A DNA stretch of 17,794 nt from a virus (taxonomy: Duplodnaviria; Heunggongvirae; Uroviricota; Caudoviricetes). A program made the position numbers and the translations under genes. Of the stretch, positions 4,070 through 17,794 are shown in pieces. The stretch lies in IMG/VR virus record IMGVR_UViG_2671180275_000001, one strand, 5' to 3'. Under the pieces are notes generated by a model that had not been told where the DNA came from, ran no database searches, and saw nothing but the letters and a program-made list of their open reading frames with translations. Each line of letters starts with the position of its first letter. Position 1 is the first letter of the stretch.

Positions 4070-4813
4070 TTAACCTGCTGCGCTGACAGTCACCGCAGTC
4101 ACAGCCACAAAATTCCCGTCAGCGGTCATGCCCACAATGCTGACACTGCCCTGCTTCACGCCTTTTACCGTGGCCACAAGTCCGTTCAGGGTAACCGTGG
4201 CAGTCTGTGGATCTGACGAATGCACACTGATCGCTTTGTCACTGGCTCCGTCAGGTTTTACTGTAAAGGTCAGCGTGGTGGTTGCTCCCACTTTTACACT
4301 GGCAGACGCCGGTGATACTGTCAGCCCGGTAACGCTCACGGTTTCAGTGCCTTCCTCTGCCAGATACGGACGCCCCACACCGCTGATTTTCACAGTGCGG
4401 GTCATCACGTCTTTTGAGGCAATGGTTTTACCCAGTGAGCTCAGCCAGCCACGGAAAACATCAACAGTGCCGTTGGGATATTTGATACGAAACGCGCAGA
4501 CTTCACCGGAGTCGAACAACTGAACCAGTTTTTTCTGCCCGCTGTCACCCGGACGCCAGGCCAACGTCGCCGAAGTATCACCAACGGATTTCTGCCCCTG
4601 GGTTGTCGTTTTCCAGTCTGCATCTTCATCATCGAGATAAGTGTCATCTTCTGCATCAGCGGTCATTTCGCCAGGTTGCAGATCCTTCACCATCGCAAGA
4701 CGCAGCCAGTCAGTGTCCGACAAAGGGTTCGCAAACGCATCGCCGTTGCCGGTATACATCCAGAACGTCGTCCCCGCACCTTTCGTCTTTGCCAGTGGAT
4801 TTGGTGTGGTCAT
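4070..4813 (-). CDS. V: major tail protein, lambda gpV-like, with C-terminal Ig-like (Big_2-type) domain
   Basis: MTTPNPLAKTKGAGTTFWMYTGNGDAFANPLSDTDW...FRGWLSSLGK is collinear with lambda V ([36 protein letters not shown]...FRGWVSSIGK). C-terminal TVSPASASVKVGATTTLTFTVKP block is Ig-like. AAGGAGGT lies 5 nt upstream of the ATG at 4813. Confidence 0.92.
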   Translation of the reverse strand: MTTPNPLAKTKGAGTTFWMYTGNGDAFANPLSDTDWLRLAMVKDLQPGEMTADAEDDTYLDDEDADWKTTTQGQKSVGDTSATLAWRPGDSGQKKLVQLFDSGEVCAFRIKYPNGTVDVFRGWLSSLGKTIASKDVMTRTVKISGVGRPYLAEEGTETVSVTGLTVSPASASVKVGATTTLTFTVKPDGASDKAISVHSSDPQTATVTLNGLVATVKGVKQGSVSIVGMTADGNFVAVTAVTVSAAG

Positions 4814-4823
4814 TACCACCTCC

Positions 4824-5225
4824 TTAATTCGTGTACGTGATCTGGTACGTGATTTCCGCCATCGCCCAGGTGGCCATCTCATTATCACGTTGATAGTTAA
4901 AACCGAGTGGGATCAGGGTGTCGATGAGTCCGGAAAGTGCCGGTATATCATTCAGGGCAGGGAAAATGGTGCTCTCCATCCACATATCCAGCTCTGAATC
5001 CGGTGCCTGTGCCCGGATGAAGACGGCAATATGCAGAACAGCCTGCCAGTCATCTTCATCCGTCATTTTTCCGGTGTACTGAGCATCACTCAGCCACACC
5101 GCCACGGCAGGCAGTTCCTGCGCATCAATAAATGCCGGAAGCCCGTCAAAAAACGTGGCGCTGTCTCCACACTGTTCCCGAAGGCGTGCCAGTACGGCCT
5201 GGCGGATTTGTGTATGCCGGTTCAT
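4824..5225 (-). CDS. U: tail terminator protein, lambda gpU-like
   Basis: MNRHTQIRQAVLARL...ATFFDGLPAFIDAQELPAVAVWL...DSELDMWMES...DIPALSGLI matches lambda U. ATG at 5225 overlaps the Z stop in an ATGA arrangement. Confidence 0.85.
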   Translation of the reverse strand: MNRHTQIRQAVLARLREQCGDSATFFDGLPAFIDAQELPAVAVWLSDAQYTGKMTDEDDWQAVLHIAVFIRAQAPDSELDMWMESTIFPALNDIPALSGLIDTLIPLGFNYQRDNEMATWAMAEITYQITYTN

Positions 5226-5800
5226 CGGGTCAGCCATAACCTCAGTTGTTGTTTCAGTGCATACCCCAGCTGTTTCGGCATTTCCGCAGCAATGATGTGG
5301 TCGCGGGCATCTTCAAATGCCTGTGTCAGCGGTCCGGACAGCGGGATTTTCACCACATCAATGGGGTAACGATTTTTGCCATCAATACGCCGCATCACAT
5401 GCCAGCGACCATTCGCCAGTTGCTGAATAAACGCATCCCGGAAAAGATATTTACCCACCTTCAGCACACTGCCACGGTACTGCAGTTTTCCACCACGCCG
5501 GGCCAGTCTGACCCGGGCTGTCCCCAGCTTAATGGCGGGCAGATTGCCCCGGTTAACGCGGATCCTGGCCGTCATTTTTCCTGACGGACTGGCTTTAAAC
5601 ACCCGGACACGCTGACGTACCAGTTTCAGGGGGATCCCTTTCACCTGGTTATCTCCCGCAACGGTATTCCCGGCAACCTGCCGGGTGGCAACCGAGACCG
5701 CTTTCTGTGCCACACGGTTTATCGCCCATGCGCTGGCCTGTGGCACCATACGGGTATCAAGGCTGTTCAGATTGCGGATGGCATTCTCAAGCCCCTTCAT
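5222..5800 (-). CDS. Z: tail completion protein, lambda gpZ-like
   Basis: MKGLENAIRNL...NRGNLPAIKLGTARV...LKVGKYLFRDAFIQQLANGRWHVMRR...YPIDVVKIPLS matches lambda Z (192 aa). AGAGGTG precedes the ATG. Confidence 0.85.
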   Translation of the reverse strand: MKGLENAIRNLNSLDTRMVPQASAWAINRVAQKAVSVATRQVAGNTVAGDNQVKGIPLKLVRQRVRVFKASPSGKMTARIRVNRGNLPAIKLGTARVRLARRGGKLQYRGSVLKVGKYLFRDAFIQQLANGRWHVMRRIDGKNRYPIDVVKIPLSGPLTQAFEDARDHIIAAEMPKQLGYALKQQLRLWLTR

Positions 5801-5811
5801 CCCACACCTCT

Positions 5812-6087
5812 TTACTCAATAAAGATCATTGGCTTACCGTTAAAACGTTCATGCCGTGTGACCGTCCATTGTTGTCCGTCATAAACAACGCGATCCCCGC
5901 GCCGTGGGCGGTATCCCGAAGAAAACACCACCAGAGAGACCGCAGGTCCGGACAGAGCATTCAGCTCTGCCAGTGTTTCGCCCGGGATCACAGCCATATC
6001 GACATCATTAATCGAGGCTGTCTTTCCCATCTTTCTGACCGTGATCGCATCCATACGCGCTGCCAGCCGGGAAAAGGGATCAGACAT
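5812..6087 (-). CDS. FII: head-tail joining protein, lambda gpFII-like
   Basis: 91-aa ORF between the head genes and Z. C-terminal RRGDRVVYDGQQWTV resembles the lambda FII RRGDTLTIGEENFWV region. Start overlaps the stop of the upstream gene. Confidence 0.65.
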   Translation of the reverse strand: MSDPFSRLAARMDAITVRKMGKTASINDVDMAVIPGETLAELNALSGPAVSLVVFSSGYRPRRGDRVVYDGQQWTVTRHERFNGKPMIFIE

Positions 6088-6489: not shown

Positions 6490-8448
6490 TTACGCCGTAC
6501 ATTTCACCAGACCGCGGTGATCAACTGGCGCGACACCGGCGTCAATACGCACTTTCGTTGTCACGCCATCCACACTGAAGCCCTCCATCTGATCAATATA
6601 TGGCGTATCCACACCGTTGAGATAAGCCACTTCAATCGTATCGGAGCCTTTGGACGCAGCCAGGTAGAAGGTGGTCTGGCTGTTATCATCAAGACGAGGC
6701 TCTGCAATAACGGTCGCAAAATCTTTCACCGGGTTAATAATACCTGCGTTAATGTCAGCCCCCTTGACACTTGAGGAGCGAATGACCTGGTTAGCAACAG
6801 ACTCCATCGCCGTCGGTACCAGTACGAACGCAGGACGAATATTCAGATGACGCTCCCCCTCTTTCTGAACGCGCATCAACTGGCGGGCTTTATCCAGCGA
6901 TGCCACGTCCATTGCAGCGCTCTCCAGTACGTTTGCATGTTTCGCTTTATCGAACAGACTTACATTATCTGTGGAGATTTTCGGGTTAGACGTCAGAATG
7001 GCATAAACCAGATCGGCAATGGTGGATTTCGCCGCACGGCCCAGCTTCATCGGGACATCGGTCAGCATATTCAGATCATCATTGATAATGGCCTGACGGG
7101 TGATACTGAACAGCTCGCCATAGGTCGCCAGTGCAATAGTGGCCTGTTTATCTCCGGTGGTGACGTATTTATATTCCGCCCCTTCACGCACCTGACGCAG
7201 AGCACTGAAGCCCCCCATACCCACACGATGGGCAATTTTAAAATCAGACAACTGACCTTTCCGCGTCCACTGTTCATAGGTTTCAGGAGCATCTTCCCAG
7301 CCCTGCAGAATGGCTTTGTTCGCAACATCCAGCAGAATATTACCGAAGTCAGACGTACTGTGTGTGAACGCCGCACCGACCATCTGCATCGGGTTATAAC
7401 TGGAAACCCCAATACCCCGTTCAGTCAGTGACATACGGGCATATTCACGCAGGGTCATCCCGTTGTAGACATTATCACGTTCGGTTTTTTCAAATCCGGC
7501 ACGCGCCATCAGCGCCTGGCGGATCCCGTCCCCCACAAAATTACCGTTACCGGCATAAATATGAGCCGGGGTATTTTTATTGGATGGCGTGGACTCGCGC
7601 CCCATCTCGTTCAACAGCTTTTCGCGGGCCTGCTCCAGCGAACATTCAGGATCGGCAAGACACTGAGCCTGCAGAGTCTGATAACGCCCGCCAAACATGG
7701 CAAACAGATCATTAATACCGTTTACACGCGCTTTTTGCTCTGCCAGTACCTGCGCACGGATACTGTTTTCATCCACCACGGGTGCTGCTGCCTGCACTGG
7801 CGTCCGGGAGGCTGCAGGTTCATCATCCTGTACGCGTGGAGCACTGTTGCGTGGCGGAGTAATCATGTTTCGAATGGATTCCGGCATCTTTTTAAATTCC
7901 TCTGTACGTTTTGACTGAATACATGCCATTGCCTTAACGGCTGGCGTTACCTGATCAGCAAATCCATGTGCCAGACATTCGGCACCGGACATCCAGGTCT
8001 CATCCGCCAGCATGGCAGCAATTTCATCGGTGGTTTTCCCGGTTTTCTGTGCATAAGCGGGTAACAGAACCGCCTCAACTTTATCGAGCAGGTCGGCATA
8101 GGTGCGCATGTCCTCCGCATCACCGCCCGTAAAGCCAAATGGTTTATGAATCATCATGAAAGTGTTTTCCGGCATAATGACCGGGTTTCCCACCATCGCA
8201 ATGACCGACGCCATTGACGCCGCCACACCGTCGACATAAACGGTAATGGACGCACCATGTGTTTTCAGCGCATTAAAAATGGCGATGCCTTCAAAGACAT
8301 CGCCACCCGGTGAATTAATATGGAGATTAATGTGGGTGATATCGCCCAGTGCATTCAGATCACTGATAAACTGCTTCGCTGTAACACCCCAGAAACCAAT
8401 CTCGTCATAAATATAAATATCCGCGTCACTCTGGTGACCAGCCTGCAT
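6490..8448 (-). CDS. fused prohead protease (ClpP-like) / major capsid protein (HK97 fold), 652 aa
   Basis: N-terminus has ClpP-type motifs (IYDEIG, SPGGD, GVAASMAS, MMIHKPFG); C-terminal half has HK97-type capsid blocks (PEGAEYKY, FSITRQAIINDDL, TDTIEVAYLNG, KVRIDAGVA). Start set to the first ATG after the portal stop (MQAGHQSD...); the 739-aa track ORF would overlap the portal by about 250 nt. Confidence 0.9.
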   Translation of the reverse strand: MQAGHQSDADIYIYDEIGFWGVTAKQFISDLNALGDITHINLHINSPGGDVFEGIAIFNALKTHGASITVYVDGVAASMASVIAMVGNPVIMPENTFMMIHKPFGFTGGDAEDMRTYADLLDKVEAVLLPAYAQKTGKTTDEIAAMLADETWMSGAECLAHGFADQVTPAVKAMACIQSKRTEEFKKMPESIRNMITPPRNSAPRVQDDEPAASRTPVQAAAPVVDENSIRAQVLAEQKARVNGINDLFAMFGGRYQTLQAQCLADPECSLEQAREKLLNEMGRESTPSNKNTPAHIYAGNGNFVGDGIRQALMARAGFEKTERDNVYNGMTLREYARMSLTERGIGVSSYNPMQMVGAAFTHSTSDFGNILLDVANKAILQGWEDAPETYEQWTRKGQLSDFKIAHRVGMGGFSALRQVREGAEYKYVTTGDKQATIALATYGELFSITRQAIINDDLNMLTDVPMKLGRAAKSTIADLVYAILTSNPKISTDNVSLFDKAKHANVLESAAMDVASLDKARQLMRVQKEGERHLNIRPAFVLVPTAMESVANQVIRSSSVKGADINAGIINPVKDFATVIAEPRLDDNSQTTFYLAASKGSDTIEVAYLNGVDTPYIDQMEGFSVDGVTTKVRIDAGVAPVDHRGLVKCTA

Positions 8449-8461
8449 CCTGAACCAGGAA

Positions 8462-9970
8462 TTATTCTTCGGACTGGTCGTCGGTGTGCTGCGGCTCCTG
8501 TCGTTTCGTTGCGGCACTGCTGCCTCCTTTATCACTGGCCGGATCGGTATCAAATACCAGATCCAGCTTGCGGTTTTCATCAATTTCGGCCTTGCGCCGA
8601 CGTTTGACATCATCCGGATTACGACCACCAGCACGTACCCAGTCTGATTCTGTCGCCGCTCCACCACGAATCTGGATTTTCCAGGCCTCAGCCTCCTTAA
8701 CAGGGTCAATCCACGGCATCACTGGTCCGGAATACACCGCGGTATACAGTGAAGAACGGTCAAGATCGCGGGGTAGCCTGATAACACCGGATGCCACAGC
8801 CTGTTTCAGCCAGGCACGATACATCGGGCGGGTGACGGCACCAATAAACCAGTCCTGCAGGATCAGGTAGCCATCAGTAGACTCAACCAGTTCCTGACGC
8901 TGGGCGCTGTAAGTGCCGTTATAGTTGCGTGCCGTACTGGAAAAACTCAGACGACTGCCCGCCGCCACGGCACGCAACTGACCATTACGAAAAGTTTCAA
9001 GGTTAGGATTGGGACGATCCGACTTCACCATTCCGATTTCTTCGCCGGGTTTCAGATCGTCGTAAATAATGCCTGGCTGAATGGTAAGCTCGCGTTCATT
9101 CTCCTTGCTGTCATTACCATCCGTTTCATAGCTCTGTCCGTCGCCTTTCCGGATGTACATCCCCAGAGCAGCGGCGATCCTTGCTGCAGTCAGCTCAGAA
9201 TCTTCATACTCTTTCAGGGCGCTGAGGCGGATCAGCACACCGGACAATAAAGACGTCCCGCGCATCTGGTGCAGACGTCGAACAAATTTAAGATGCAGCA
9301 TTCGCTCTGCATCCACTTCTTTGGTTTCCATCTGCCGTCCGGATACAGGACGACTTTTATACACCAGATATTTTTCGGGACGCCCCCAGTCATCAACAAA
9401 CACGCCCTGATTCAGCCTGTTGCTCTCATCACTGGTCATGGGAATAAAGTCCGGCTCGAGCGCCTCCAGCCAGAAATGAACACCGGCAGAAGGCGTCAGG
9501 CTGTTTATGCGCCCGGAAACCATCTGGGCAAACACCTCACCATCGCGCAGCCAGGTACGCAGCATCAGACGTTCCAGCATCGGACGGGTAAACTGCCCGG
9601 TGACTTCCGGACTGACAGACCATTCACTCCATCGGGTACGTATCTCCGCTGCCAGGTCACGGGCAATGGCACCATTGCGTAATACCGGATGTGGCTCGAC
9701 AATAATCCCGTTTTTCCCCACCACCCGTTCTTCCAGCTTGTCAAATACACCAATGACCAGATCGTGGTTGTTATCAAGGTAACGGGCCTGCTCACGTAAC
9801 GACACGGCCCCGTACTGGCTTAACTGGTCGGCAGTTCGGTTCTCCCGTCGGGCTTTGTGTGTCCGCGTCGTTTTTACGGCCTCATAAGCTTGGATCACCG
9901 CTCGGGAACGCAGCCTTGCCGCTTTCCATCCTGGTGAAAAAACGCCAATCACATCATCAAGAATTGCCAT
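8462..9970 (-). CDS. B: portal protein, lambda gpB-like
   Basis: 502-aa ORF from MAILDDVIGVFSPGW with GAGG 5 nt upstream. Position between the W-like gene and the protease/capsid gene; length and overall composition resemble lambda B (533 aa). ATG overlaps the W-like stop (TGATG). Confidence 0.88.
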   Translation of the reverse strand: MAILDDVIGVFSPGWKAARLRSRAVIQAYEAVKTTRTHKARRENRTADQLSQYGAVSLREQARYLDNNHDLVIGVFDKLEERVVGKNGIIVEPHPVLRNGAIARDLAAEIRTRWSEWSVSPEVTGQFTRPMLERLMLRTWLRDGEVFAQMVSGRINSLTPSAGVHFWLEALEPDFIPMTSDESNRLNQGVFVDDWGRPEKYLVYKSRPVSGRQMETKEVDAERMLHLKFVRRLHQMRGTSLLSGVLIRLSALKEYEDSELTAARIAAALGMYIRKGDGQSYETDGNDSKENERELTIQPGIIYDDLKPGEEIGMVKSDRPNPNLETFRNGQLRAVAAGSRLSFSSTARNYNGTYSAQRQELVESTDGYLILQDWFIGAVTRPMYRAWLKQAVASGVIRLPRDLDRSSLYTAVYSGPVMPWIDPVKEAEAWKIQIRGGAATESDWVRAGGRNPDDVKRRRKAEIDENRKLDLVFDTDPASDKGGSSAATKRQEPQHTDDQSEE

Positions 9971-10182
9971 CAGAACCTCGCCAGCCGGTACCCGGGATGC
10001 CCCCGTCGTCGTGTAATCAGAGCCGCAAGGCGGCGCTCCCACTCCTGCCGCCCCTGCCGGATCTCAGATAAGTTTTCCATGGTCATCTGCTGACCATTAA
10101 AAGTGACGGATTTTCCGTCCAGCACTGCCATTTCAGCTTCCGTATAACGCTGAATCATGGCTTCAATATCATTCTGATTCAT
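9970..10182 (-). CDS. W: head-tail joining protein, lambda gpW-like
   Basis: 70-aa ORF (MNQNDIEAMIQRYTEAEMAVLDGKSVTF...RRRGHPGY). Lambda W is about 68 aa and ends ...QRRRGPAGFYV. ATGA overlap with the terminase stop, as for lambda A-W. GGAGG lies 6 nt upstream. Confidence 0.6.
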   Translation of the reverse strand: MNQNDIEAMIQRYTEAEMAVLDGKSVTFNGQQMTMENLSEIRQGRQEWERRLAALITRRRGHPGYRLARF

Positions 10183-11291
10183 AACCATCCTCCGGAAGTC
10201 AGCCAGGGGTTAACATCGTCAGTTACTGTTTTCTTCCGTTTTTGTTTTTTAACAGGCGTGGATACCGGTTCCGGTGTGGGTGACGGTTCGGTACTGTCCG
10301 GGACACACTCCAGCCAGGTTTCCCGGCTCGCCCACTCCGGTGCATCCGGCCAGCGGATCTTTTCGTATCCATGCAGAATGACCAGAGCCTCGGCATACAC
10401 CATCAGGTCAAAAGCTTCGTTGGCACCGCGACCCGGCTTACTCCATTTCCCGTCACTGCTCCGCTCTTCATACGTCAGTTCGTCGTAAAACCAGCTCCCC
10501 AGCCAGTCAGGGAAATGCACATAGCCGGGACCTGGCGAGTCACGCCATAACGCGTTATTCACCCTGTCTTTCAGGGCATCCGTCTGAAGAAGCCAGAGCG
10601 GTACATCACCTGCGGCCTGCGCCCGTCGGCCCGTTCGTCCGGTGTTATCAGGGAATGTACGGGTGATCAGTTTTGCGCGCCGGATGCTGTCGCCCTTAAA
10701 CAGGTAAATACGTTTACCAAGGCCATCACGACGGCAACGACGCCAGAATTTATAGGCATTATCAGTGACCCCGTCTTCACCGCCGGAGTCCACCGCCATT
10801 GCCATCAGTCGCATTTGTTGAGAAGGATCGGAGGCCAGCGGCCAGCTTTTATGAAAAACATCCGTCAGCAGGACATCCCAGTCTTCCGGATAGCTGGCCG
10901 GATCAATTCGCTGGCTCTCCCCGTCGCTGTCACCGCGCAATGACTGCGTGATGTTGTAACGATCAATAATCCAGCGTTCGCCACGGCTGCCATAGCCCGT
11001 TACCTGAACCACAAAACGGCGATGACGTCCCGCCTGCACATCCACTGTCGCCACAAGGAAATTAACGCCATCCGGCACACTGCGGGAAGGAACTGGCTCT
11101 GCCCGCTGCTCAAGCAATTCACTTTTTCGTTGCTCCATGCTGGCGCGGGGAAGATAAGGTAATCCCCAGTCGGTATTGATAACCGTCTTGAGTGTCTCTT
11201 CACTTCCGGTTGTCTCGTATTCCTGTTCTGCAGTAAGCAGTTTGTAAACGAGTTGCGAGAGTGTCTGATAAGCAGCTGCCGGCCCCTCCAT
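10179..11291 (-). CDS. A: terminase large subunit, gpA family, C-terminal portion only (5-prime truncated; probable pseudogene)
   Basis: 370-aa ORF matching the C-terminal part of lambda gpA (LVATVDVQ vs LTAGIDSQ; AVDSGG vs WDTGG; NEAFDLMVYAEAL vs NEALDCFVYALAA). Frame is closed by a stop 11 codons upstream of the ATG; no SD; upstream DNA is AT-rich and non-coding. No Walker-A N-terminal domain. Confidence 0.8.
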   Translation of the reverse strand: MEGPAAAYQTLSQLVYKLLTAEQEYETTGSEETLKTVINTDWGLPYLPRASMEQRKSELLEQRAEPVPSRSVPDGVNFLVATVDVQAGRHRRFVVQVTGYGSRGERWIIDRYNITQSLRGDSDGESQRIDPASYPEDWDVLLTDVFHKSWPLASDPSQQMRLMAMAVDSGGEDGVTDNAYKFWRRCRRDGLGKRIYLFKGDSIRRAKLITRTFPDNTGRTGRRAQAAGDVPLWLLQTDALKDRVNNALWRDSPGPGYVHFPDWLGSWFYDELTYEERSSDGKWSKPGRGANEAFDLMVYAEALVILHGYEKIRWPDAPEWASRETWLECVPDSTEPSPTPEPVSTPVKKQKRKKTVTDDVNPWLTSGGWL

Positions 11292-11313
11292 CCAGGAAGA
11301 AGTAAATAAAAGG

Positions 11314-11345
11314 TAACTAAATGATTATAAATAGTTATTTAGTTA
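11314..11345. repeat. AT-rich inverted repeat TAACTAAAT-N14-ATTTAGTTA next to the terminase truncation point
   Basis: Perfect 9-bp arms at about 11314-11322 and 11337-11345, within 25 bp of the ATG at 11291. Confidence 0.4.
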
Positions 11346-11659
11346 TACTACCTCCTACATAGTCCAAGATTTAGTACCTGCTTAAACGATAAAAAAAGAA
11401 ACAAAAGCAGCAATATTAATTAAAAGCTGAATGATGATGGGGGTACGCTTGTGTCTGATTCCGGTAACGCGGTGGATTAATCCCAGTATTTCGGCTTCTG
11501 TCATTGTGCCCCCATCGCGCTGGTGAAGAAAACAAGCTCAGATTTTTTGTAAAGAATCTGTCACGCTAAAAGATGTCGAACAAAAAATAACCTTCTTCAT
11601 CATCTTTTTCACATCAAAATAATTAAAAACAATCACTTACGCACATGATGATGATGACG

Positions 11660-11760
11660 ATAAAATCAAAAAAATGCGCTTTTTTCCGCGCCGCCCGCCC
11701 CGTGTTCAGGCCCACCCCACCAGGAGGACCCGCAAAAAAGGCGGCTGGTGCCGCCTTGTT
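11660..11760 (-). repeat. conserved ~100-bp element, copy A (terminator plus conserved distal block)
   Basis: Aligns at roughly 85% identity with 14198-14299 (ATAAAATCAAAAAATGCGC...TTTTTCCGCGCC...CCGCCCCGTG...CAGGCC...ACCCCACCAGGAG...AAAAAAG + hairpin). Identity is by eye. Confidence 0.6.
11733..11756 (-). terminator. intrinsic terminator after the second protease/capsid gene
   Basis: Minus strand GGCGG-CACCAG-CCGCC followed by TTTTTT, starting 6 nt after the stop at 11762. Confidence 0.6.
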
Positions 11761-11761
11761 G

Positions 11762-13651
11762 TCATAGTGAATCTGTCCCGCCTGATTTGACCATACCGCG
11801 ATAATCCAGAGCTGCCACACCTGCATCAATACGGACTTTCCAGGCCACGCCGTCAACGATAAAACCTTCCTGCTGTTCAAGGTAAGGCTCGTCATTGCCA
11901 TCAAGATAAGCCACCTCGATTGTGTCAGTTCCCTGTGCGGAAAGCATGTACCATTGTTTTTCGCTGATATCATCAAGGCGGGGATCGACGATGATATCAA
12001 GTAGCTTGTGGTACGGGTTAAAGATCCCGCTGTTTTTATCAGCCCCGAAAGGTGCGGTTGAGTTAATCATCTGCAACGCGCGATCTTCCAGTGCTGCCGG
12101 AACTAAAAGGAATTTAGGCGCAATATTCAGCACTTCGCCATTTTTGTCCTTCTGTGTGCGCATCAGGTGACGTGCTGCACTAAGTCCCGATGTTGTCAGT
12201 CCTGCTTCAATCAGGTTGCTGTGTTTTTTGTCAAACAGCGTTATTCCGTCAGAAAGTTTTACGTTGCCTGTAAGCACCAGATTAACCAGATTTCCCACCG
12301 TTCTTGATGCTGCACGGCCCATAGCCATTGGCACCGTTGATAACTGATCAAGGTCATCATTGATTATCGCCTGGCGGGTAATGCTGAAAATATTCCCGTA
12401 AGTAGCCAGCGCGATGGGTTCACCGCGATCGCTGGTGGTGATGTATTTATATTCTGCCCCTTCCGGCACTTTGCTTAACGTAGAGAAACCATTCAGGCCA
12501 ACGCGGCGGGCTTCACGAAAGTTTGAAAGGGAACCTTTTTTCGTCCACTGGCGGAATGTTTCGCCGCTGTGCTCCCAGCCTGCAAGCACTGATTTTTCAG
12601 CGCCACCAGCAAGGATATCGGTAAAATCGCTGCTGCTGTGGTTGAATGCCGCGTTTACTATCTGCGAGCGTGTGCCGTAGCTGCCCGTGCTTATACCACG
12701 ATGGGTTAATGATGCCTGTGCCATATCGAAAAGACTCATCATGGCGTAAGGATTACCGCGTTCGGCCCGTTCGTGACCAAGACGCGCATTAAGCCCCTGA
12801 CGCATGGCATCGCCAGTTATATTGCCGTTATCCGTGTACGCGTAGTAAAGATTTGCGGGGGTGGTTTTGTTTGTTGGCGTTGATTCTTTACCCATAGCGA
12901 GTAAAAGGCGTTCGCGTGCATTCTCAACGCTACATTCTGAATCCGCAAGACAACTTATAGCCAGGTCGTTATATCTTCCGTTGAAGGTGCCAAACAATTC
13001 ACGGATTCCGTTAAGTCGTTCCTGTTCGCCACTGCCAGTTTTCTGGCTGATCATGCTTTTAATTTTTTCCGGCATATTTGAAAAATCTCCGATTCGTTTT
13101 GATTCAATTCGGGCCATTGCTGTAATCGCGGGTATAACCTCATCTGCGAAGCCGTTAGCCTTACACTCATTGCCATCCATCCAGGTTTCCGCCTCCATCA
13201 TGGCGGTGATTTCCTGTTTGCTCCTGCCCGTTCTTCCGGCGTAGGTTTCTGCCATCGTGTCGCCCAGCTTGTCCATCAGGTCAGCAAAGCGGCGAACGTC
13301 GCCCGACACTCCGGCAGTAACACCACGGGGGGTATGTATCATCATCATCGCGTTTTCAGGCATAACGATGTGATCGCCACACATGGCAATAAACGAGGCC
13401 ATAGAAGCCGCCATGCCCTCAATGTGTACAATTTTCTTTGCCGGATGATTTTTCAGGGCGTTATAGATAGCCAGCCCTTCAAAGATGTCGCCACCAGGTG
13501 AATGGATGCGAAGATGGATTTCAGACGCATTACCACACGCGTTGATCTCGTCAGTAAGTGCCGATGCTTTTACACCGTACCCGCCGATCTCGTCATAAAT
13601 GCGCACATAGACAACATCTGCCATAGCCTTAATGGAAAACCATGTTTTCAT
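11762..13651 (-). CDS. second fused ClpP-like protease / HK97-fold major capsid protein (629 aa), divergent paralogue of 6490..8448
   Basis: Same domain order and motifs (RIYDEIG, HSPGGD, GMAASMAS, MMMIHTPRG, PEGAEYKY, FSITRQAIINDDL, TDTIEVAYLDG, KVRIDAGVA). AGGAGA lies 6 nt upstream of the ATG at 13651, which overlaps the stop of the upstream small ORF (ATGA). Confidence 0.85.
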   Translation of the reverse strand: MKTWFSIKAMADVVYVRIYDEIGGYGVKASALTDEINACGNASEIHLRIHSPGGDIFEGLAIYNALKNHPAKKIVHIEGMAASMASFIAMCGDHIVMPENAMMMIHTPRGVTAGVSGDVRRFADLMDKLGDTMAETYAGRTGRSKQEITAMMEAETWMDGNECKANGFADEVIPAITAMARIESKRIGDFSNMPEKIKSMISQKTGSGEQERLNGIRELFGTFNGRYNDLAISCLADSECSVENARERLLLAMGKESTPTNKTTPANLYYAYTDNGNITGDAMRQGLNARLGHERAERGNPYAMMSLFDMAQASLTHRGISTGSYGTRSQIVNAAFNHSSSDFTDILAGGAEKSVLAGWEHSGETFRQWTKKGSLSNFREARRVGLNGFSTLSKVPEGAEYKYITTSDRGEPIALATYGNIFSITRQAIINDDLDQLSTVPMAMGRAASRTVGNLVNLVLTGNVKLSDGITLFDKKHSNLIEAGLTTSGLSAARHLMRTQKDKNGEVLNIAPKFLLVPAALEDRALQMINSTAPFGADKNSGIFNPYHKLLDIIVDPRLDDISEKQWYMLSAQGTDTIEVAYLDGNDEPYLEQQEGFIVDGVAWKVRIDAGVAALDYRGMVKSGGTDSL

Positions 13652-13842
13652 AGCCAGTCTCCTAACGTTGCCCTGTACCAGTATTCAACCGCGCTTCTCG
13701 CAATCTGCCCTTTCGTGGGTACTGGCATTCCAGGGTGATTACTTTTAATGAACTGCTGATAGCGTTCTATCTTTTCCATAGTTCCGGCGTCTATGTGTAC
13801 CGTGGCACTTTTATCCGGCTTTCTGGTGTTGTTCTCTGGCAT
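13648..13842 (-). CDS. small protein (64 aa) translationally coupled to the second capsid gene; possible ribbon-helix-helix fold
   Basis: Start at internal ATG (MPENNTRKPDKSATVHIDAGTMEKIERYQQFIK...GQIARSAVEYWYRATLGDWL) with GGAGG 7 nt upstream. Strand-helix-turn-helix pattern is a guess from residue periodicity. Confidence 0.45.
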   Translation of the reverse strand: MPENNTRKPDKSATVHIDAGTMEKIERYQQFIKSNHPGMPVPTKGQIARSAVEYWYRATLGDWL

Positions 13843-14033
13843 AAATCCGCCTCCGTTTTGATTAACGGGCATCATTATTGATCGACAAAAGTAATAGATA
13901 AATCATTTTCTACCTGAAAATCAGATTATGTTTTTTCTGATTATTCTCAGAGAGGCAAAGCCATTGACGCATTTTTGCTATTGAAGCAATATTAAGACTC
14001 GTCATCATGGCGATAAAAACTCCTTTGTCGTGT

Positions 14034-14074
14034 AAAAGCGCCTCCGGTAACAGCAATCGGGGGCGCTTTTTTTT
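14034..14074 (+). terminator. plus-strand intrinsic terminator-like hairpin in an intergenic region
   Basis: Plus strand GCGCCTCCG-GTAACAGCAAT-CGGGGGCGC (9-bp stem including one G-U pair) followed by T8. In the minus orientation only TTTT follows. Confidence 0.5.
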
Positions 14075-14197
14075 GCGCCTGTTTTTTTGTAAATGTTTTC
14101 GGGAACGTTCCAGTGATGAACAAAAAACAACCTGATTCGACACTAAAAATTTTTATTCCTCAATATATCAATAGCTTATAGTGGTGGTGATGGTGCC

Positions 14198-14299
14198 ATA
14201 AAAATCAAAAAATGCGCCTTTTTCCGCGCCCCTCCGCCCCGTGGACAGGCCACCCCCACCAGGAGTACCTACAAAAAAGCCGGATTTCTCCGGCTGTTG
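14198..14299 (-). repeat. conserved ~100-bp element, copy B (terminator plus conserved distal block)
   Basis: Second copy of the element at 11660-11760; directly 3-prime of the PerC-like gene. Confidence 0.6.
14272..14296 (-). terminator. intrinsic terminator after the PerC-like gene
   Basis: Minus strand AGCCGGA-GAAA-TCCGGCT followed by TTTTTT, starting 5 nt after the stop at 14301. Confidence 0.6.
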
Positions 14300-14300
14300 A

Positions 14301-14573
14301 TTAGCTGTCTGGGTAATTACGCCATATTTCATCGCTTACACCATCTATACCCATTTCAGCATAAGTGCGATCGACTACCTTTCTCAGGTCTCCGAAGTTA
14401 TCCGGCGGCTCCGGTGGCCTCTGTGCCTTCCTGGAACATTCCAGCCGTCGCATCGTAACCTGATGCCGTTCCTTGTCTGTCTCCACCAGCTGCATGACTT
14501 CACCCCATCGCGCCGCCGCCCTCCGGTAAAATCCTTTCGCCTCGAGTTCCTCCGCTATGCGGTCATGTATCAT
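14301..14573 (-). CDS. PerC-family-like small transcriptional regulator (90 aa)
   Basis: N-terminal IAEELEAKGFYRRAAARWGEVM matches the AExLExKG-(F/W)-RRAAxRW signature I associate with PerC/Pch proteins. ATG at 14573 with GGAGAG upstream. Confidence 0.5.
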   Translation of the reverse strand: MIHDRIAEELEAKGFYRRAAARWGEVMQLVETDKERHQVTMRRLECSRKAQRPPEPPDNFGDLRKVVDRTYAEMGIDGVSDEIWRNYPDS

Positions 14574-14748
14574 CGCCTGACTCTCCGGTTTTTACGTTGA
14601 TGGTTGTTACCTGTTCCGCTTCGGCAATCTCCCGTTCTGTCAACGTGGCAAAGTTTGCCGCCGCTGTGGTCATGAATGCGCTTATCAGTTCGGGATGCTC
14701 CTTCGCGTATCCTTCCCCAGCGTGGCGGTCTATTACCCTGATTGCCAC
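14563..14748 (-). CDS. small acidic hypothetical protein (61 aa); frame and start uncertain
   Basis: Protein-like composition (MAIRVIDRHAGEGYAKEHPELISAF...); GTG start without a clear SD. An overlapping 77-aa Arg-rich frame (14570..14803) ends in an ATGA overlap with the PerC-like start and could be the real gene instead. Confidence 0.3.
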   Translation of the reverse strand: MAIRVIDRHAGEGYAKEHPELISAFMTTAAANFATLTEREIAEAEQVTTINVKTGESGDDT

Positions 14749-14785
14749 CTTTAAGGCGTGCTCTGTCTCTGCGCATTTTGGTTAT

Positions 14786-14990
14786 CTCCTCACTCATGCT
14801 CACTTTTACACCTCACTTTTTAAAGCGTCTCGCTTCGTCTCACTTGATATTTTTTGATGCTTTATGTGTGTGTTTCATAAGGATTTTTTTACTCCTCACT
14901 TTTGAGCATGTATACAGGTGAGAAAGTGAGTAATCGTGTTAATATTTTGTAAAAACCTCACCATTACTCACTTTTGCTACTCACTTTTTA
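14786..14990. repeat. iteron-like direct repeats (CTCACTTTT) flanking an AT-rich spacer; candidate replication origin
   Basis: At least six direct copies of (C)TCACTTTT plus one inverted copy (GTGAGAAAGTGAG) around an AT-rich stretch at about 14846-14892, immediately 3-prime of the helicase-like gene. Confidence 0.5.
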
Positions 14991-16388
14991 CAGTGGTCCT
15001 ACATCATCACCATCAATGTAAATCACGGCGTCTTTTTCCAGTTTGGCTAACCATCGCCGCATATTTTTCACGTCATACCCAAGCCGTTTCATGTCATCAC
15101 GTAACAGCGGGATCGTGCACTTGTCGCCGTTCTGTGTGCGTGAACGGATGCACCCCCATAGTGCGGTATGGTTTTCCGTCTTGTTGCCTGCCTCCTCGAT
15201 GCGTTCCAGTTCAACGGGAGGGCGCGGCTTATCCACCACCACCAGCGACGTGATTAACTCCCCGTCAGCGTCGGTAAACAGCTCCACCACGCGTAAGTCA
15301 TATGCGGCTTCTTTGAGTTCCTCCGCGTCCTTCATTTTGGTGCATGAGATAACCAGCGCTTCGCTTCCTGCGTCCTCCCTGCGTATCCGGTATTCAGCAT
15401 CCAGCGAAGCACGAAATGCACTGGAACCGCGCGCGCCTTTCGTCTCATCCTTGCCGGAATGGTGAACCACCAGCACCGTGGCCCCTGTGCGTCGTTTCAG
15501 TTCGTCACAACCACGGATAAACGCCCCCATATCACGGGAATCATTTTCATCATTCCCACCAAAGCAACGCGCCAGCGTATCCAGAATAATCATGCGTACA
15601 GGTTTACCCGTTTCCCGCTCCACCTGACGGGCAGCGATAACCATTTCATCAACATCAAGCGGGGCAGCCGGAAAGATGGGGCGGTTTACCAGATACAGAT
15701 TTTTCACCTGCTCATCGTGCACAACCTCCCAGGCTTTTACACGACGCGGAACACCTATACCGCCTTCACCAACCACATAGAGAACCGCACCATGTGCAAC
15801 CCTGCGGCCTCCCCACTGGCGACCAGTGGCAACATGGCACGCCCACGATCCGGCAAGGAATGATTTATAGGACCCGCTAGCCCCGTATATGCTGCACAGC
15901 GATACCGCCGGAATAATCCCCTTAACCACGTAATCAAGTTGTGTGTCGTATCCGGCAGATCCCACGCTCATTGGTAGCGTGGTTTTTCGCTGGTGGTGTT
16001 TTTCTTCCCCTGGCTTTTTCCCCCGCTCCCGTTCCAGATATTCGCGCCAGTTCTCCCGCTTCTGGCTGTGCATCCCTTCGGGGTAATAATTCGCATCAGT
16101 TACACCCGCCGCCGCCAGCTTGTGCGCAATGGCATTAATATTTGATGGCCTGATGTGGCCTGCCTTGTACAGCCGGACACAATAGCGCCCCTCGTCGATG
16201 ATTCTCAGGTCTGCCAGTTCATCCAGTTGATCATCAGCCAGCACAACGGGAGGCACATTATCGCCAGCCAGTCGCCCGTCCTGTTCCTGCCACTGTTTCG
16301 CATGTGCCCAGGCATCACTACCCGCAAAAATAATGACTTCGGTCATCTTGTCGTAAGGCTGTTTTTTTAAGTTCGGTGCGCTTTTCAT
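14988..16388 (-). CDS. replication protein: RepA/DnaB-like RecA-fold P-loop helicase (AAA_25-like) with an N-terminal domain of unclear type
   Basis: Walker A YGASGSYKSF and Walker B MIILDTLARCFGGNDEND, with LVVHHSGKDETKGARGSSAF downstream, as in RepA-type hexameric helicases. ATGA overlap with the upstream 99-aa ORF. Confidence 0.75.
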   Translation of the reverse strand: MKSAPNLKKQPYDKMTEVIIFAGSDAWAHAKQWQEQDGRLAGDNVPPVVLADDQLDELADLRIIDEGRYCVRLYKAGHIRPSNINAIAHKLAAAGVTDANYYPEGMHSQKRENWREYLERERGKKPGEEKHHQRKTTLPMSVGSAGYDTQLDYVVKGIIPAVSLCSIYGASGSYKSFLAGSWACHVATGRQWGGRRVAHGAVLYVVGEGGIGVPRRVKAWEVVHDEQVKNLYLVNRPIFPAAPLDVDEMVIAARQVERETGKPVRMIILDTLARCFGGNDENDSRDMGAFIRGCDELKRRTGATVLVVHHSGKDETKGARGSSAFRASLDAEYRIRREDAGSEALVISCTKMKDAEELKEAAYDLRVVELFTDADGELITSLVVVDKPRPPVELERIEEAGNKTENHTALWGCIRSRTQNGDKCTIPLLRDDMKRLGYDVKNMRRWLAKLEKDAVIYIDGDDVGPL

Positions 16389-16684
16389 TTCTTGCCCCTG
16401 AATCCGTTAATCATGGTTTTCAGCTTCTGGATGTTTGCCCGTGCCCTGGCGTTGCTGGTGGGCACGTTATGCGGCGCGGTCTGTACCAGAGAAAAATCAC
16501 GCCGGAACTGATAAACAGGCATCACGCAATCATATTCGTAACCTTCACGGCGGTAAGTTACGCACCGTCCCGCCACGCCCTTAATCATTACCGTACCGCC
16601 GTACTGGTCGCGGTAAATATCACCGCGCGTAAATTTAGGGTGAGTGTTGCCACTGGCAGTTAAGCCAGAATATTTAAGTTTCAT
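16385..16684 (-). CDS. hypothetical protein (99 aa)
   Basis: ATG start; stop overlaps the helicase start (ATGA). No recognised motif. Confidence 0.5.
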   Translation of the reverse strand: MKLKYSGLTASGNTHPKFTRGDIYRDQYGGTVMIKGVAGRCVTYRREGYEYDCVMPVYQFRRDFSLVQTAPHNVPTSNARARANIQKLKTMINGFRGKK

Positions 16685-16689
16685 TATTT

Positions 16690-16923
16690 TTATTCTCCGG
16701 TGTGCTGTTCTTTATATCTGTCGTGCAATAGATCTATTTCTTGCAGTTCCATTATTACATGCTCAAGAATCGTTATTAATGCCGTGGCAATTCTTGATTT
16801 TTGTTTGTCGCGTTCATTGTCGCCAAGTGTTTCAAGCCATATGCGCAATATTTCCATCATGCTTTCACTGTGAGAAAGTGCAAGAAATGCGCGGTCTATT
16901 GTTTCAAGATAAATATCACGCAT
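16690..16923 (-). CDS. hypothetical helical protein (77 aa)
   Basis: ATG one nt after the stop of the upstream ORF (TAAtATG); GGGGA upstream. No recognised motif. Confidence 0.45.
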   Translation of the reverse strand: MRDIYLETIDRAFLALSHSESMMEILRIWLETLGDNERDKQKSRIATALITILEHVIMELQEIDLLHDRYKEQHTGE

Positions 16924-16924
16924 A

Positions 16925-17359
16925 TTAATCCCCGTCCGTTGTTTTTCTTAAAACAGCTTCTGTCACGAAATCGGCATAGTTAGCGGCAATATCAAGAATA
17001 TTTAGCCCTGTATCTCTGTGCTCATCAGTGCAAAGAAAGAAAAAAGCCACCCGCATAATTTCAGATATTAACGAAAGCGCATCAACCGCATCATCAGGAA
17101 CGCCGGAAAATTCTTGTTTCAGGGAATTAAAACGATCATCACGCATAACCCCCCCATTTTCACAATCAGCAACAAGAATATTTTTAGCGTCATTCAGTGA
17201 CCGCGTTGCGGTGTATCGGATACATTCCAGGGCGAATAGTGTGTATTCTTCCCGTCCTTCCTTTTGTGCAAGCTCTGCTGTGCATTCAATATCAATAAGC
17301 GCGTGCATCAGCGTAGTGAGCGCGGCGGCTGCTGCGTCCGGTGTGGTTTTATTGCACAT
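16925..17359 (-). CDS. hypothetical protein (144 aa)
   Basis: Start at internal ATG (MCNKTTPDAAAAALTTLMH...) with GGAGGT 6 nt upstream. No recognised motif. Confidence 0.5.
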   Translation of the reverse strand: MCNKTTPDAAAAALTTLMHALIDIECTAELAQKEGREEYTLFALECIRYTATRSLNDAKNILVADCENGGVMRDDRFNSLKQEFSGVPDDAVDALSLISEIMRVAFFFLCTDEHRDTGLNILDIAANYADFVTEAVLRKTTDGD

Positions 17360-17540
17360 GGCACACCTCCTGACGAATACGGGCGGCGAATACAGCAACA
17401 CAACCGGACGGGCAACGGCTACGCGCTTCGCGTTCCGTCCAGGCGGTTACGTGGATGATTTGAGATTCTGACGCGCCAAAGATGATAAAGCGCCAGATAA
17501 ATGCGGTTTGAGAATGTACAAGGGTAGGGATAGTAGCCAT
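17349..17540 (-). CDS. hypothetical small protein (63 aa) with a Cys-x3-Cys ... Cys-His pattern
   Basis: Internal ATG (MATIPTLVHSQTAFIWRF...RCPSGCVAVFAARIRQEVCHVQ) with GGAGG 7 nt upstream; first gene after the terminator-like hairpin at about 17702-17725. Confidence 0.4.
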   Translation of the reverse strand: MATIPTLVHSQTAFIWRFIIFGASESQIIHVTAWTEREARSRCPSGCVAVFAARIRQEVCHVQ

Positions 17541-17701
17541 GTTGGCAGCCTCCTCAGTGTGGTTAAGATAACCGCCACGCAAAAGGCTAATTTCGCTGGT
17601 GGCGGACTGTACAGGGTTAGCCTTACCGGACACTGAAGAAACCGGCGCGGATTGCTCCGCCCCCGTACAGCCCACCATTGATAAGGTGTGACTATGCGGC
17701 A

Positions 17702-17725
17702 CAAAAAAACACGCGGGGCGCGTGC
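17702..17725 (-). terminator. intrinsic terminator-like hairpin closing a transcription unit that lies beyond the window end
   Basis: Minus strand CACGCG-CCC-CGCGTG followed by T7. Confidence 0.4.
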
Positions 17726-17794
17726 TGTGCGCTTCAGTTGTTTTCAGGAGGCTAATCCCGACACCCGTTTTATGAGGTGCGCGGGAATCATAGC

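Follow-up and report, generated by a model that had tools for sequence, protein, structure and literature searches.

A second protease/capsid fusion gene beside a split terminase gene in an Escherichia coli prophage: a probable helper-embedded satellite

The window analysed here is a 17,794-nucleotide stretch of tailed-phage DNA (Caudoviricetes; IMG/VR record IMGVR_UViG_2671180275_000001), taken at its full length. All of its long open reading frames (ORFs) lie on the minus strand, and two of them encode fusions of a ClpP-like prohead protease with a major capsid protein (MCP): a 652-residue protein from the head module of a lambdoid prophage, and a 629-residue protein on the other side of a truncated large terminase gene (terL) (Table 1). 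We conclude that the second gene is probably a late-zone gene of a ∼10-kb satellite of the Gram-negative phage-inducible chromosomal island (PICI) type, which lies co-oriented inside the GpA-type terL of an mEp460-like lambdoid helper prophage, the configuration of helper-embedded PICIs (HE-PICIs), and that its product may act in head assembly.

Table 1. Features of the helper prophage and of the proposed satellite in the window
Feature	Position	Strand	Evidence
Head gene of helper prophage, a ClpP/MCP fusion of 652 aa (comparison paralogue)	6490..8448	minus	Pfam; BLASTP
3′ half of terL of the helper prophage (residues 331-700, with the GpA nuclease domain)	10179..11291	minus	PF20454, E = 3e-83
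attR crossover core CTGGATG, satellite/helper terL junction (Trp330/Met331)	11289..11295		attL, attR and attB compared
Right arm of satellite (attP P-arm side)	11296..11645	minus	contains inverted repeat 11314-11345
cos-like site 2 (cosQ/cosN-like), 3′ of capsid gene	11646..11744	minus	99-nt direct repeat D1
Terminator-like hairpin, 8-bp GC-rich stem then U6	11738..11757	minus	fold -16.3 kcal/mol, z = -2.25
Satellite ClpP-like prohead protease/scaffold-linker/MCP fusion, 629 aa, ATG start	11762..13651	minus	Pfam + NCBIfam
Small ORF, 64 aa, ATGA overlap (translational coupling to capsid gene)	13648..13842	minus	GGAGG ribosome-binding site; phrog_4934, E = 6e-49
cos-like site 1, 3′ of PerC gene	14185..14283	minus	99-nt direct repeat; kept in relatives
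PerC-family regulator of satellite	14301..14573	minus	PF06069, E = 4e-44
Iterons (CTCACTTTT; five exact copies, one near copy), putative satellite origin	14799..14988		within 190 bp, directly 3′ of rep gene
RepA-like helicase (AAA_25), satellite replication initiator	14988..16388	minus	PF13481, E = 9e-44; phrog_2850
DUF4222 protein, kept upstream of PICI replication gene	16385..16684	minus	PF13973
ORF with Icd-like C-terminal domain	17349..17702	minus	NF033153, E = 8e-16
C4 antisense (P4 CI-like immunity) RNA	17595..17682	minus	RF01695, 75.4 bits (gathering threshold 45)
isrK (P4 seqA-like) RNA	17704..17780	minus	RF01394, 61.8 bits (gathering threshold 50)

The satellite capsid gene and its relatives

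The 629-residue ORF is intact. Its translation scores 889 bits against the NCBIfam model NF045540, 'ClpP-like prohead protease/major capsid protein fusion protein' (curated cutoff 475 bits), and matches phrog_133 in PHROG at E = 2.5e-279. Pfam places a CLP_protease domain (PF00574) at residues 41-173 (E = 2.7e-33) and an HK97-type Phage_capsid_4 domain (PF25209) at residues 330-623 (E = 6e-55), a domain architecture identical to that of the helper head protein. BLASTP aligns the two proteins end to end with 331 of 645 residues identical (51%, E = 0). A sequence-only reading of the window had described the gene as a full-length paralogue of the head gene in which about half of the residues differ, and Pfam and BLASTP agree with it. 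The catalytic motifs that it had noted are indeed kept: Ser83 (AASMAS) and His106 (MMIH) are unchanged throughout an alignment of 12 sequences. In a codon alignment of the two genes the proportion of synonymous differences is 0.76 and thus saturated, with a pN of 0.31. The second gene is therefore neither an assembly error nor the product of a recent segmental duplication of the head gene, and the earlier view that the pair is not a recent tandem duplication holds, near-identity at the DNA level not having been found. A search of the PDB with the fusion protein returned cellular ClpP chains only.

The expression signals proposed earlier for the gene were confirmed by direct reading of the sequence. 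An AGGAG ribosome-binding site lies 7 nt 5′ of the start codon, and the ATGA overlap joins the gene to a small upstream ORF whose true start is probably 13842 rather than 13875, the mechanical limit of the ORF. The terminator-like hairpin with its U6 tract begins 4 nt past the capsid stop codon, at the 5′ edge of cos-like site 2. A consensus terminator scan reported the homologous hairpin downstream of the PerC gene and not this one; direct folding reveals both.

The nearest relatives of the 629-residue fusion are E. coli proteins of 628 or 629 residues that are 90-99% identical to it, followed by a group of 637-638 residues at 62-63% identity. Among 50,697 phage records the best match reached 51.6% identity, and the top matches were Stx-converting phages, mEp460 and cdtI, all with heads of the helper type. 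These comparisons point to a satellite-specific capsid lineage that is not seen in any sequenced phage. The dN/dS ratio is 0.05-0.14 among orthologues of the satellite gene and 0.18 between the two satellite lineages (dS ∼ 1.5), values that argue for purifying selection. A Pro/Ala/Gln-rich stretch just past the protease domain is shorter by 29-34 residues in both satellite lineages; its AlphaFold confidence is low, consistent with a flexible linker.

Selection of this kind bears directly on the possibility that the gene is a passenger, i.e. a captured late gene that the satellite could dispense with and that has little or no role. Such a gene would be at home in the late zone of PICIs, which is dynamic and contains captured late-gene clusters (Tommasini et al., PMC10111431). 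The capsid homologue of the PICI EcCICFT073 appears to be one, since it is needed neither for interference (PMC6092414) nor, according to Tommasini et al., for transfer (PMC10111431), and the copy in E. coli JNEC-KY179 is a pseudogene. The ratios given above, however, extend across orthologues and across two lineages with a dS of ∼1.5, and a difference of more than 48% from every sequenced phage homologue argues for an old lineage maintained by satellites rather than a recent capture. The capsid module is moreover present in ∼143 complete genomes, and the coupled upstream ORF is conserved. We therefore regard a passenger as distinctly unlikely.

The second capsid-fusion lineage (637 residues, 62% identical) is listed in 520 collection blocks and was compared at four loci, in one of which it lies at 10001-12940. 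Its islands have the order int, AlpA, DUF4222, D5 primase, SSB, small ORF, MCP and DUF1441, and are classical PICIs at chromosomal sites that contain no further head or tail genes. The DUF1441 protein encoded after the MCP gene belongs to the same family as the small terminase subunit (TerS) of the helper; it is a candidate packaging-redirection gene without a counterpart in the satellite of the window.

The split terminase gene and the related islands

The terL fragment carries the GpA nuclease domain alone (Pfam) and matches the intact 700-residue terL of a comparison genome. The 7-bp core CTGGATG at its end is common to attL, attR and attB, and falls between the ATPase and nuclease domains of the 700-residue protein. 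The sequences compared are …GCCAGTTTCTGGATG/TAGGGTAC… for attL, …TACTTCTTCCTGGATG/GAGGGGCC… for attR and …GCGTCATTCTGGATGGAGGGGCC… for the intact terL (attB); the restored terL at attB would read …TCATTCTGGATGGAGGGG…. A 400-bp probe of the junction was compared with 5,426 complete E. coli genomes, and a match over at least 80% of its length was counted as spanning. The junction is spanned in 82 genomes, whereas ∼1,400 match the terL side only and end exactly at 11295, with an intact large terminase annotated among the matches listed. GpA-type terL is present in ∼1,500 of the same genomes. Because the junction is precise, the att core is shared and 82 spanning genomes stand against ∼1,400 that end at 11295, the truncated terminase is a by-product of the site-specific integration of a capsid-bearing satellite. 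The sequence-only reading was thus right to call the terminase truncated, only the GpA nuclease half being present, but the truncation is not incidental: the satellite's own integration split the gene. We consider the split to be probably reversible. Over 6490-11288 the head module of the helper shares 99% identity with mEp460, cdtI and Ayreon, all of them viable phages.

Several details of the junction deserve mention. At attL (∼36003-36009 in the comparison locus of strain O111:H21 15A, described below) the crossover places a TAG stop codon directly behind Met331 of terL. The core at attR provides the nuclease half with an in-frame ATG (Met331), at which there is no obvious ribosome-binding site. 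An inverted repeat of 15 nt (TAACTAAATGATTAT / ATAGTTATTTAGTTA; 11314-11345) is found on the satellite side, 20-50 bp from the att core. It is unlike the published HE-PICI motif TGTATTGC and may be a site for the integrase arm or for an accessory protein.

A megablast search of these genomes with positions 11300-17794 identified 41 near-full-length copies. In JNEC-KY177 the copy is an island of ∼10.4 kb integrated at tRNA-Pro next to yejM, away from any phage genes, and has the order int, helix-turn-helix gene, YlcI, Icd, hypotheticals, DUF4222, RepA, SSB, PerC, small ORF, ClpP/MCP and two small ORFs. In O111:H21 15A it is an island of ∼9.7 kb inside a lambdoid prophage at ydfJ, and the order reads terS (DUF1441), 5′ terL, int … ClpP/MCP, 3′ terL, gpW-like, portal, ClpP/MCP and tail genes. 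The two terL pieces are annotated there as 'missing C-terminus' (5′) and as 'terminase gpA endonuclease subunit, missing N-terminus' (3′). The coupled 64-residue ORF is annotated and kept in both copies. The integrase at the terL site of O111:H21 15A is 39% identical to that of the sister island at tRNA-Pro, and is followed by a gene for a 67-residue 'helix-turn-helix transcriptional regulator' that has no Pfam match at E ≤ 1e-3. JNEC-KY179, strains of O121:H19 and others share the terL-embedded arrangement. These embedded satellites vary in their replication module, a D5-type primase being found in place of RepA, and we therefore assume several independent insertions.

The gene content around the capsid gene is that of a satellite. 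The Rfam matches to C4 and isrK are full-length and represent the pair of CI/seqA immunity RNAs of the P4/P1 type, which immediately precedes the Icd-like ORF. Two hypothetical proteins are encoded between that ORF and the DUF4222 gene. The iteron cluster, which includes an inverted pair at 14923-14974, is probably the replication origin of the satellite, and between it and the PerC gene lies a small ORF matched by PHROG only. The two cos-like sites are 74% identical and 2,539 bp apart, so that they bracket the small ORF and the capsid gene; the repeats extend to 11578-11598 and 14118-14138. Each can be aligned with the cosQ/cosN region that precedes terS in the helper prophage of O111:H21 15A, and both are conserved in this strain and in JNEC-KY177. 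The capsid module may have entered the satellite as a cassette bounded by cos sites. We assign the element to the satellites because of the isrK/C4 pair, the Icd-like and DUF4222 genes, RepA with its iterons, PerC, the two cos-like sites and the existence of a stand-alone island.

The ClpP/MCP fusion is the sole structural gene in every satellite copy, and none has lysis genes, tail genes or a full head module. TerS, TerL, HNH, portal and head-tail connector genes were found neither in the satellite part of the window nor in the islands of JNEC-KY177 and O111:H21 15A; Psu, Sid and alpha homologues were not found in the Pfam or PHROG scans of the window. The earlier statement that the capsid gene is unaccompanied by portal, small terminase and tail genes is therefore valid for all satellite copies. 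At first sight two head genes and a truncated terminase in one window do look like prophage debris, and the sequence-only reading had left room for a remnant of a second prophage; such a prophage would have decayed and recombined next to the first. The synteny of the related islands leads us to reject this explanation, to which we attach a negligible probability. The element has its own integrase and att sites and exists as a ∼10-kb unit at tRNA-Pro without phage genes; inside terL its junction is precise and site-specific in 82 genomes, with both halves of the gene kept. No copy contains portal, terS, tail or lysis genes, and immunity RNAs of the P4 type are present. What the synteny supports is the other possibility raised at the outset, a capsid-encoding satellite of separate origin, in which the block of rep, PerC and capsid genes travels with the integrase as an island of ∼10 kb, either standing alone at tRNA-Pro or inside a prophage terL.

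Proposed life cycle and role of the capsid protein

The satellite ORFs share the minus strand with terL, portal and MCP genes and are thus co-oriented with the helper late genes. By comparison with the HE-PICI and PICI literature, induction of the composite would allow helper late transcription to enter the satellite. Int, together with an AlpA-like partner, would excise it and so restore terL, RepA and the iteron origin would drive its replication, and its cos sites would be cut by the helper terminase. The protease-scaffold-MCP polyprotein, the product of a single gene, would then use the helper portal for its assembly, by itself or together with the helper MCP. By analogy with SaPIbov5 Ccm, the capsids made or reshaped in this way could favour the satellite and lower the yield of the helper. 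Since the head genes of the satellite are limited to this protease-MCP gene, portal, terminase, connectors and tails must be borrowed.

We have moderate confidence in the proposed function, namely that the satellite protein contributes to the assembly of heads on components of the helper. The proposal draws on a complete protease-scaffold-MCP unit, on a head type that matches that of the helper, on the selection acting on the gene and on the precedent of Ccm. Ccm is a homologue of the helper capsid protein which forms pentamers and forces small T=4 capsids in SaPIbov5 (PMC8569155), and we regard it as the best mechanistic precedent for the E. coli protein. It has likewise been suspected that the MCP homologue of PmCI172 makes small capsids (PMC6092414).

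Several observations weigh against the reading of the gene as a head-assembly gene of a terL-embedded satellite. Neither attL nor the integrase gene nor the 5′ portion of terL is contained in the window, and we deduce them from genomes that are 95-98% identical, in which the integrase and both attL and attR are present. A capsid-building or size-redirecting role cannot be generalized across the capsid genes of PICIs. Preferential packaging of the satellite is unexplained as long as no Rpp- or TerS-like gene is detected: the PHROG scan and the search for PDB matches did not find a packaging-redirection protein of either type in this satellite. RppC was not matched in the PDB by the 158-residue ORF (16925..17401) or by the sister PICI's DUF1441 protein, and PHROG offered only families of unknown function. 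A usable AlphaFold model of the MCP domain was not obtained. With the 12-sequence alignment AlphaFold2 gave a mean pLDDT (predicted local distance difference test) of 52.7 for the fusion, with confidence confined to residues 1-175, the ClpP domain, and to a portion of the helical region in the middle; the MCP domain remained below 50. In JNEC-KY179 the satellite capsid gene is reduced to pseudogene fragments (18205-19211 of the JNEC-KY179 locus) and the helper carries IS3 in a tail gene (4806-6019 of that locus); some helper-satellite composites, such as this one, are decaying.

A full-length homologue that has kept those assembly blocks of the helper MCP which are most conserved could also act purely as a decoy, the dominant-negative role raised by the sequence-only reading. 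The satellite protein would then co-assemble with the helper MCP and portal, or titrate them, and poison helper heads without being part of satellite particles. Interference with the helper is general among PICIs (PMC6092414), and the loss of 29-34 linker residues in both satellite lineages might change co-assembly. However, a pure decoy needs neither the whole protease domain nor the catalytic Ser and His, all of which are conserved. Deletion of the capsid gene of EcCICFT073 left interference unrelieved (PMC6092414). Transfer of the satellite, moreover, requires heads, whether those of the helper or its own, so that pure poisoning would harm the satellite as well. We consider the decoy unlikely, and retain head assembly on helper components as the best-supported role.

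Comparison with published satellites

Capsid-bearing Gram-negative PICIs and HE-PICIs are of a kind already published (PMC6092414, PMC10111431). Capsid homologues were noted when the Gram-negative PICIs were defined (Fillol-Salom 2018, PMC6092414), and the major capsid gene is their commonest late gene, found in 21 of 29 reference elements (Tommasini 2023, PMC10111431). SatelliteFinder counts a capsid or capsid-modification gene as a core component of PICIs. Other features of the element are equally familiar: PerC-like genes are frequent among the Gram-negative PICIs (PMC11773190), the origin of PICIs is located 3′ of the replication gene (PMC6092414), and C4/isrK-type RNAs have been reported in their Bro zone (PMC10111431).

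HE-PICIs are known at 14 sites in late genes cognate to those of lambda, their prototype being Eco567.11capE (11capE) of E. coli NRG857c (PMC10111431). The satellite of the window has the same zone order as 11capE (integration, Bro with C4/isrK, replication, late) and, like it, a late-zone capsid gene of the type used by its helper, a fusion here and lambda E + D in 11capE with its lambda-type helper. DUF4222, Icd-like, YlcI/YnfO and SSB are also shared; the DUF4222 protein of the window is 48% identical to the 11capE homologue and is found in the equivalent position in PICIs of the second capsid lineage. The 11capE counterpart of the 67-residue regulator adjacent to int matches PF05930. The integrases of 11capE and O111:H21 15A both consist of Arm-DNA-bind_3 and Phage_integrase domains, but they are only 25% identical, at 87 bits against a cutoff of 400 bits in the published survey. 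The target at Trp330/Met331 of a GpA-type terL lies outside the 14 published sites, of which those in terminase are A:Terminase_1:132, 245 and 246 (PMC10111431). No GpA-family site was found in the text or supplements of Tommasini 2023, where 'GpA' has zero matches in the supplements. The TGTATTGC motif that is doubled in the attP of HE-PICIs had no match in 11296-11645, the attR arm that was scanned, even with one mismatch allowed. The two elements further differ in replication, with a D5-type primase in 11capE and a RepA-like helicase here, and in the capsid, lambda E + D in 11capE and a ClpP-scaffold-MCP fusion here. The novelty of the element therefore lies in its site, a GpA-type terL, and in its integrase, which falls outside the clade published so far.

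The codons for MMIH in both ClpP domains of the window (8146-8157 and 13334-13345, minus strand) correspond to ATGATGATCCAT with one mismatch, and ATGATGATCCAT is the published att core of HE-PICI group C:CLP_protease:110. Neither ClpP domain of the window shows any sign of an insertion at these sites. A further embedded satellite could therefore find a near-target in either capsid gene.

EcCICFT073 (PMC6092414, PMC6739421) resembles the element as an integrase island with unidirectional genes, a replication gene with a 3′ origin, a PerC-like gene and a capsid homologue downstream of the replication module; like the satellite described here, it has two cos sites (PMC6739421). It differs in that a homologue of Rpp was not detected in the satellite of the window, in its lambda E and D homologues where the window has a protease-MCP fusion, and in its chromosomal rather than prophage-embedded position. 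SaPIbov5 Ccm (Carpena 2016; Hawkins 2021, PMC8569155) shares with it a satellite-encoded homologue of the helper MCP on a cos-packaged island, but is Gram-positive, unrelated in sequence and without a fused protease. The capsid-forming PICI EcCIEDL933 (Alqurainy 2023, bioRxiv 10.1101/2022.09.08.507074) also has its own HK97-type capsid and maturation protease, of a lineage separate from that of phages; it encodes HNH, TerS, TerL, portal and head-tail connectors as well, in contrast to the single protease-MCP gene found here. With P4-like satellites only the C4/isrK immunity RNAs and the Icd-like gene are shared.

An apparent prophage with debris thus probably resolves into a composite of helper and satellite, with a second capsid gene that is maintained as part of the satellite. 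This extends helper-embedded satellites to GpA-type terL and to a second integrase lineage; the head module with GpA-type terL is common to Stx-converting and mEp460-like phages. Taken together, the data allow a more far-reaching proposal, which we put forward tentatively and consider somewhat doubtful as a whole. Helper embedding may have evolved a second time, through an unrelated integrase lineage of the P4/PICI type at the hinge between the ATPase and nuclease of a GpA-type terL, leaving the helper dead for packaging until the satellite departs, and a single protease-scaffold-MCP gene may suffice to build satellite-specific, possibly smaller, shells on the helper portal. If this were true, the element would be a minimal, one-gene intermediate between classical and capsid-forming PICIs. 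The composite offers a tractable system for the question why a capsid homologue is present in most Gram-negative PICIs: the embedding identifies the helper, the capsid gene is self-contained and offers catalytic residues that can be tested, and stand-alone and pseudogene copies provide natural variants.

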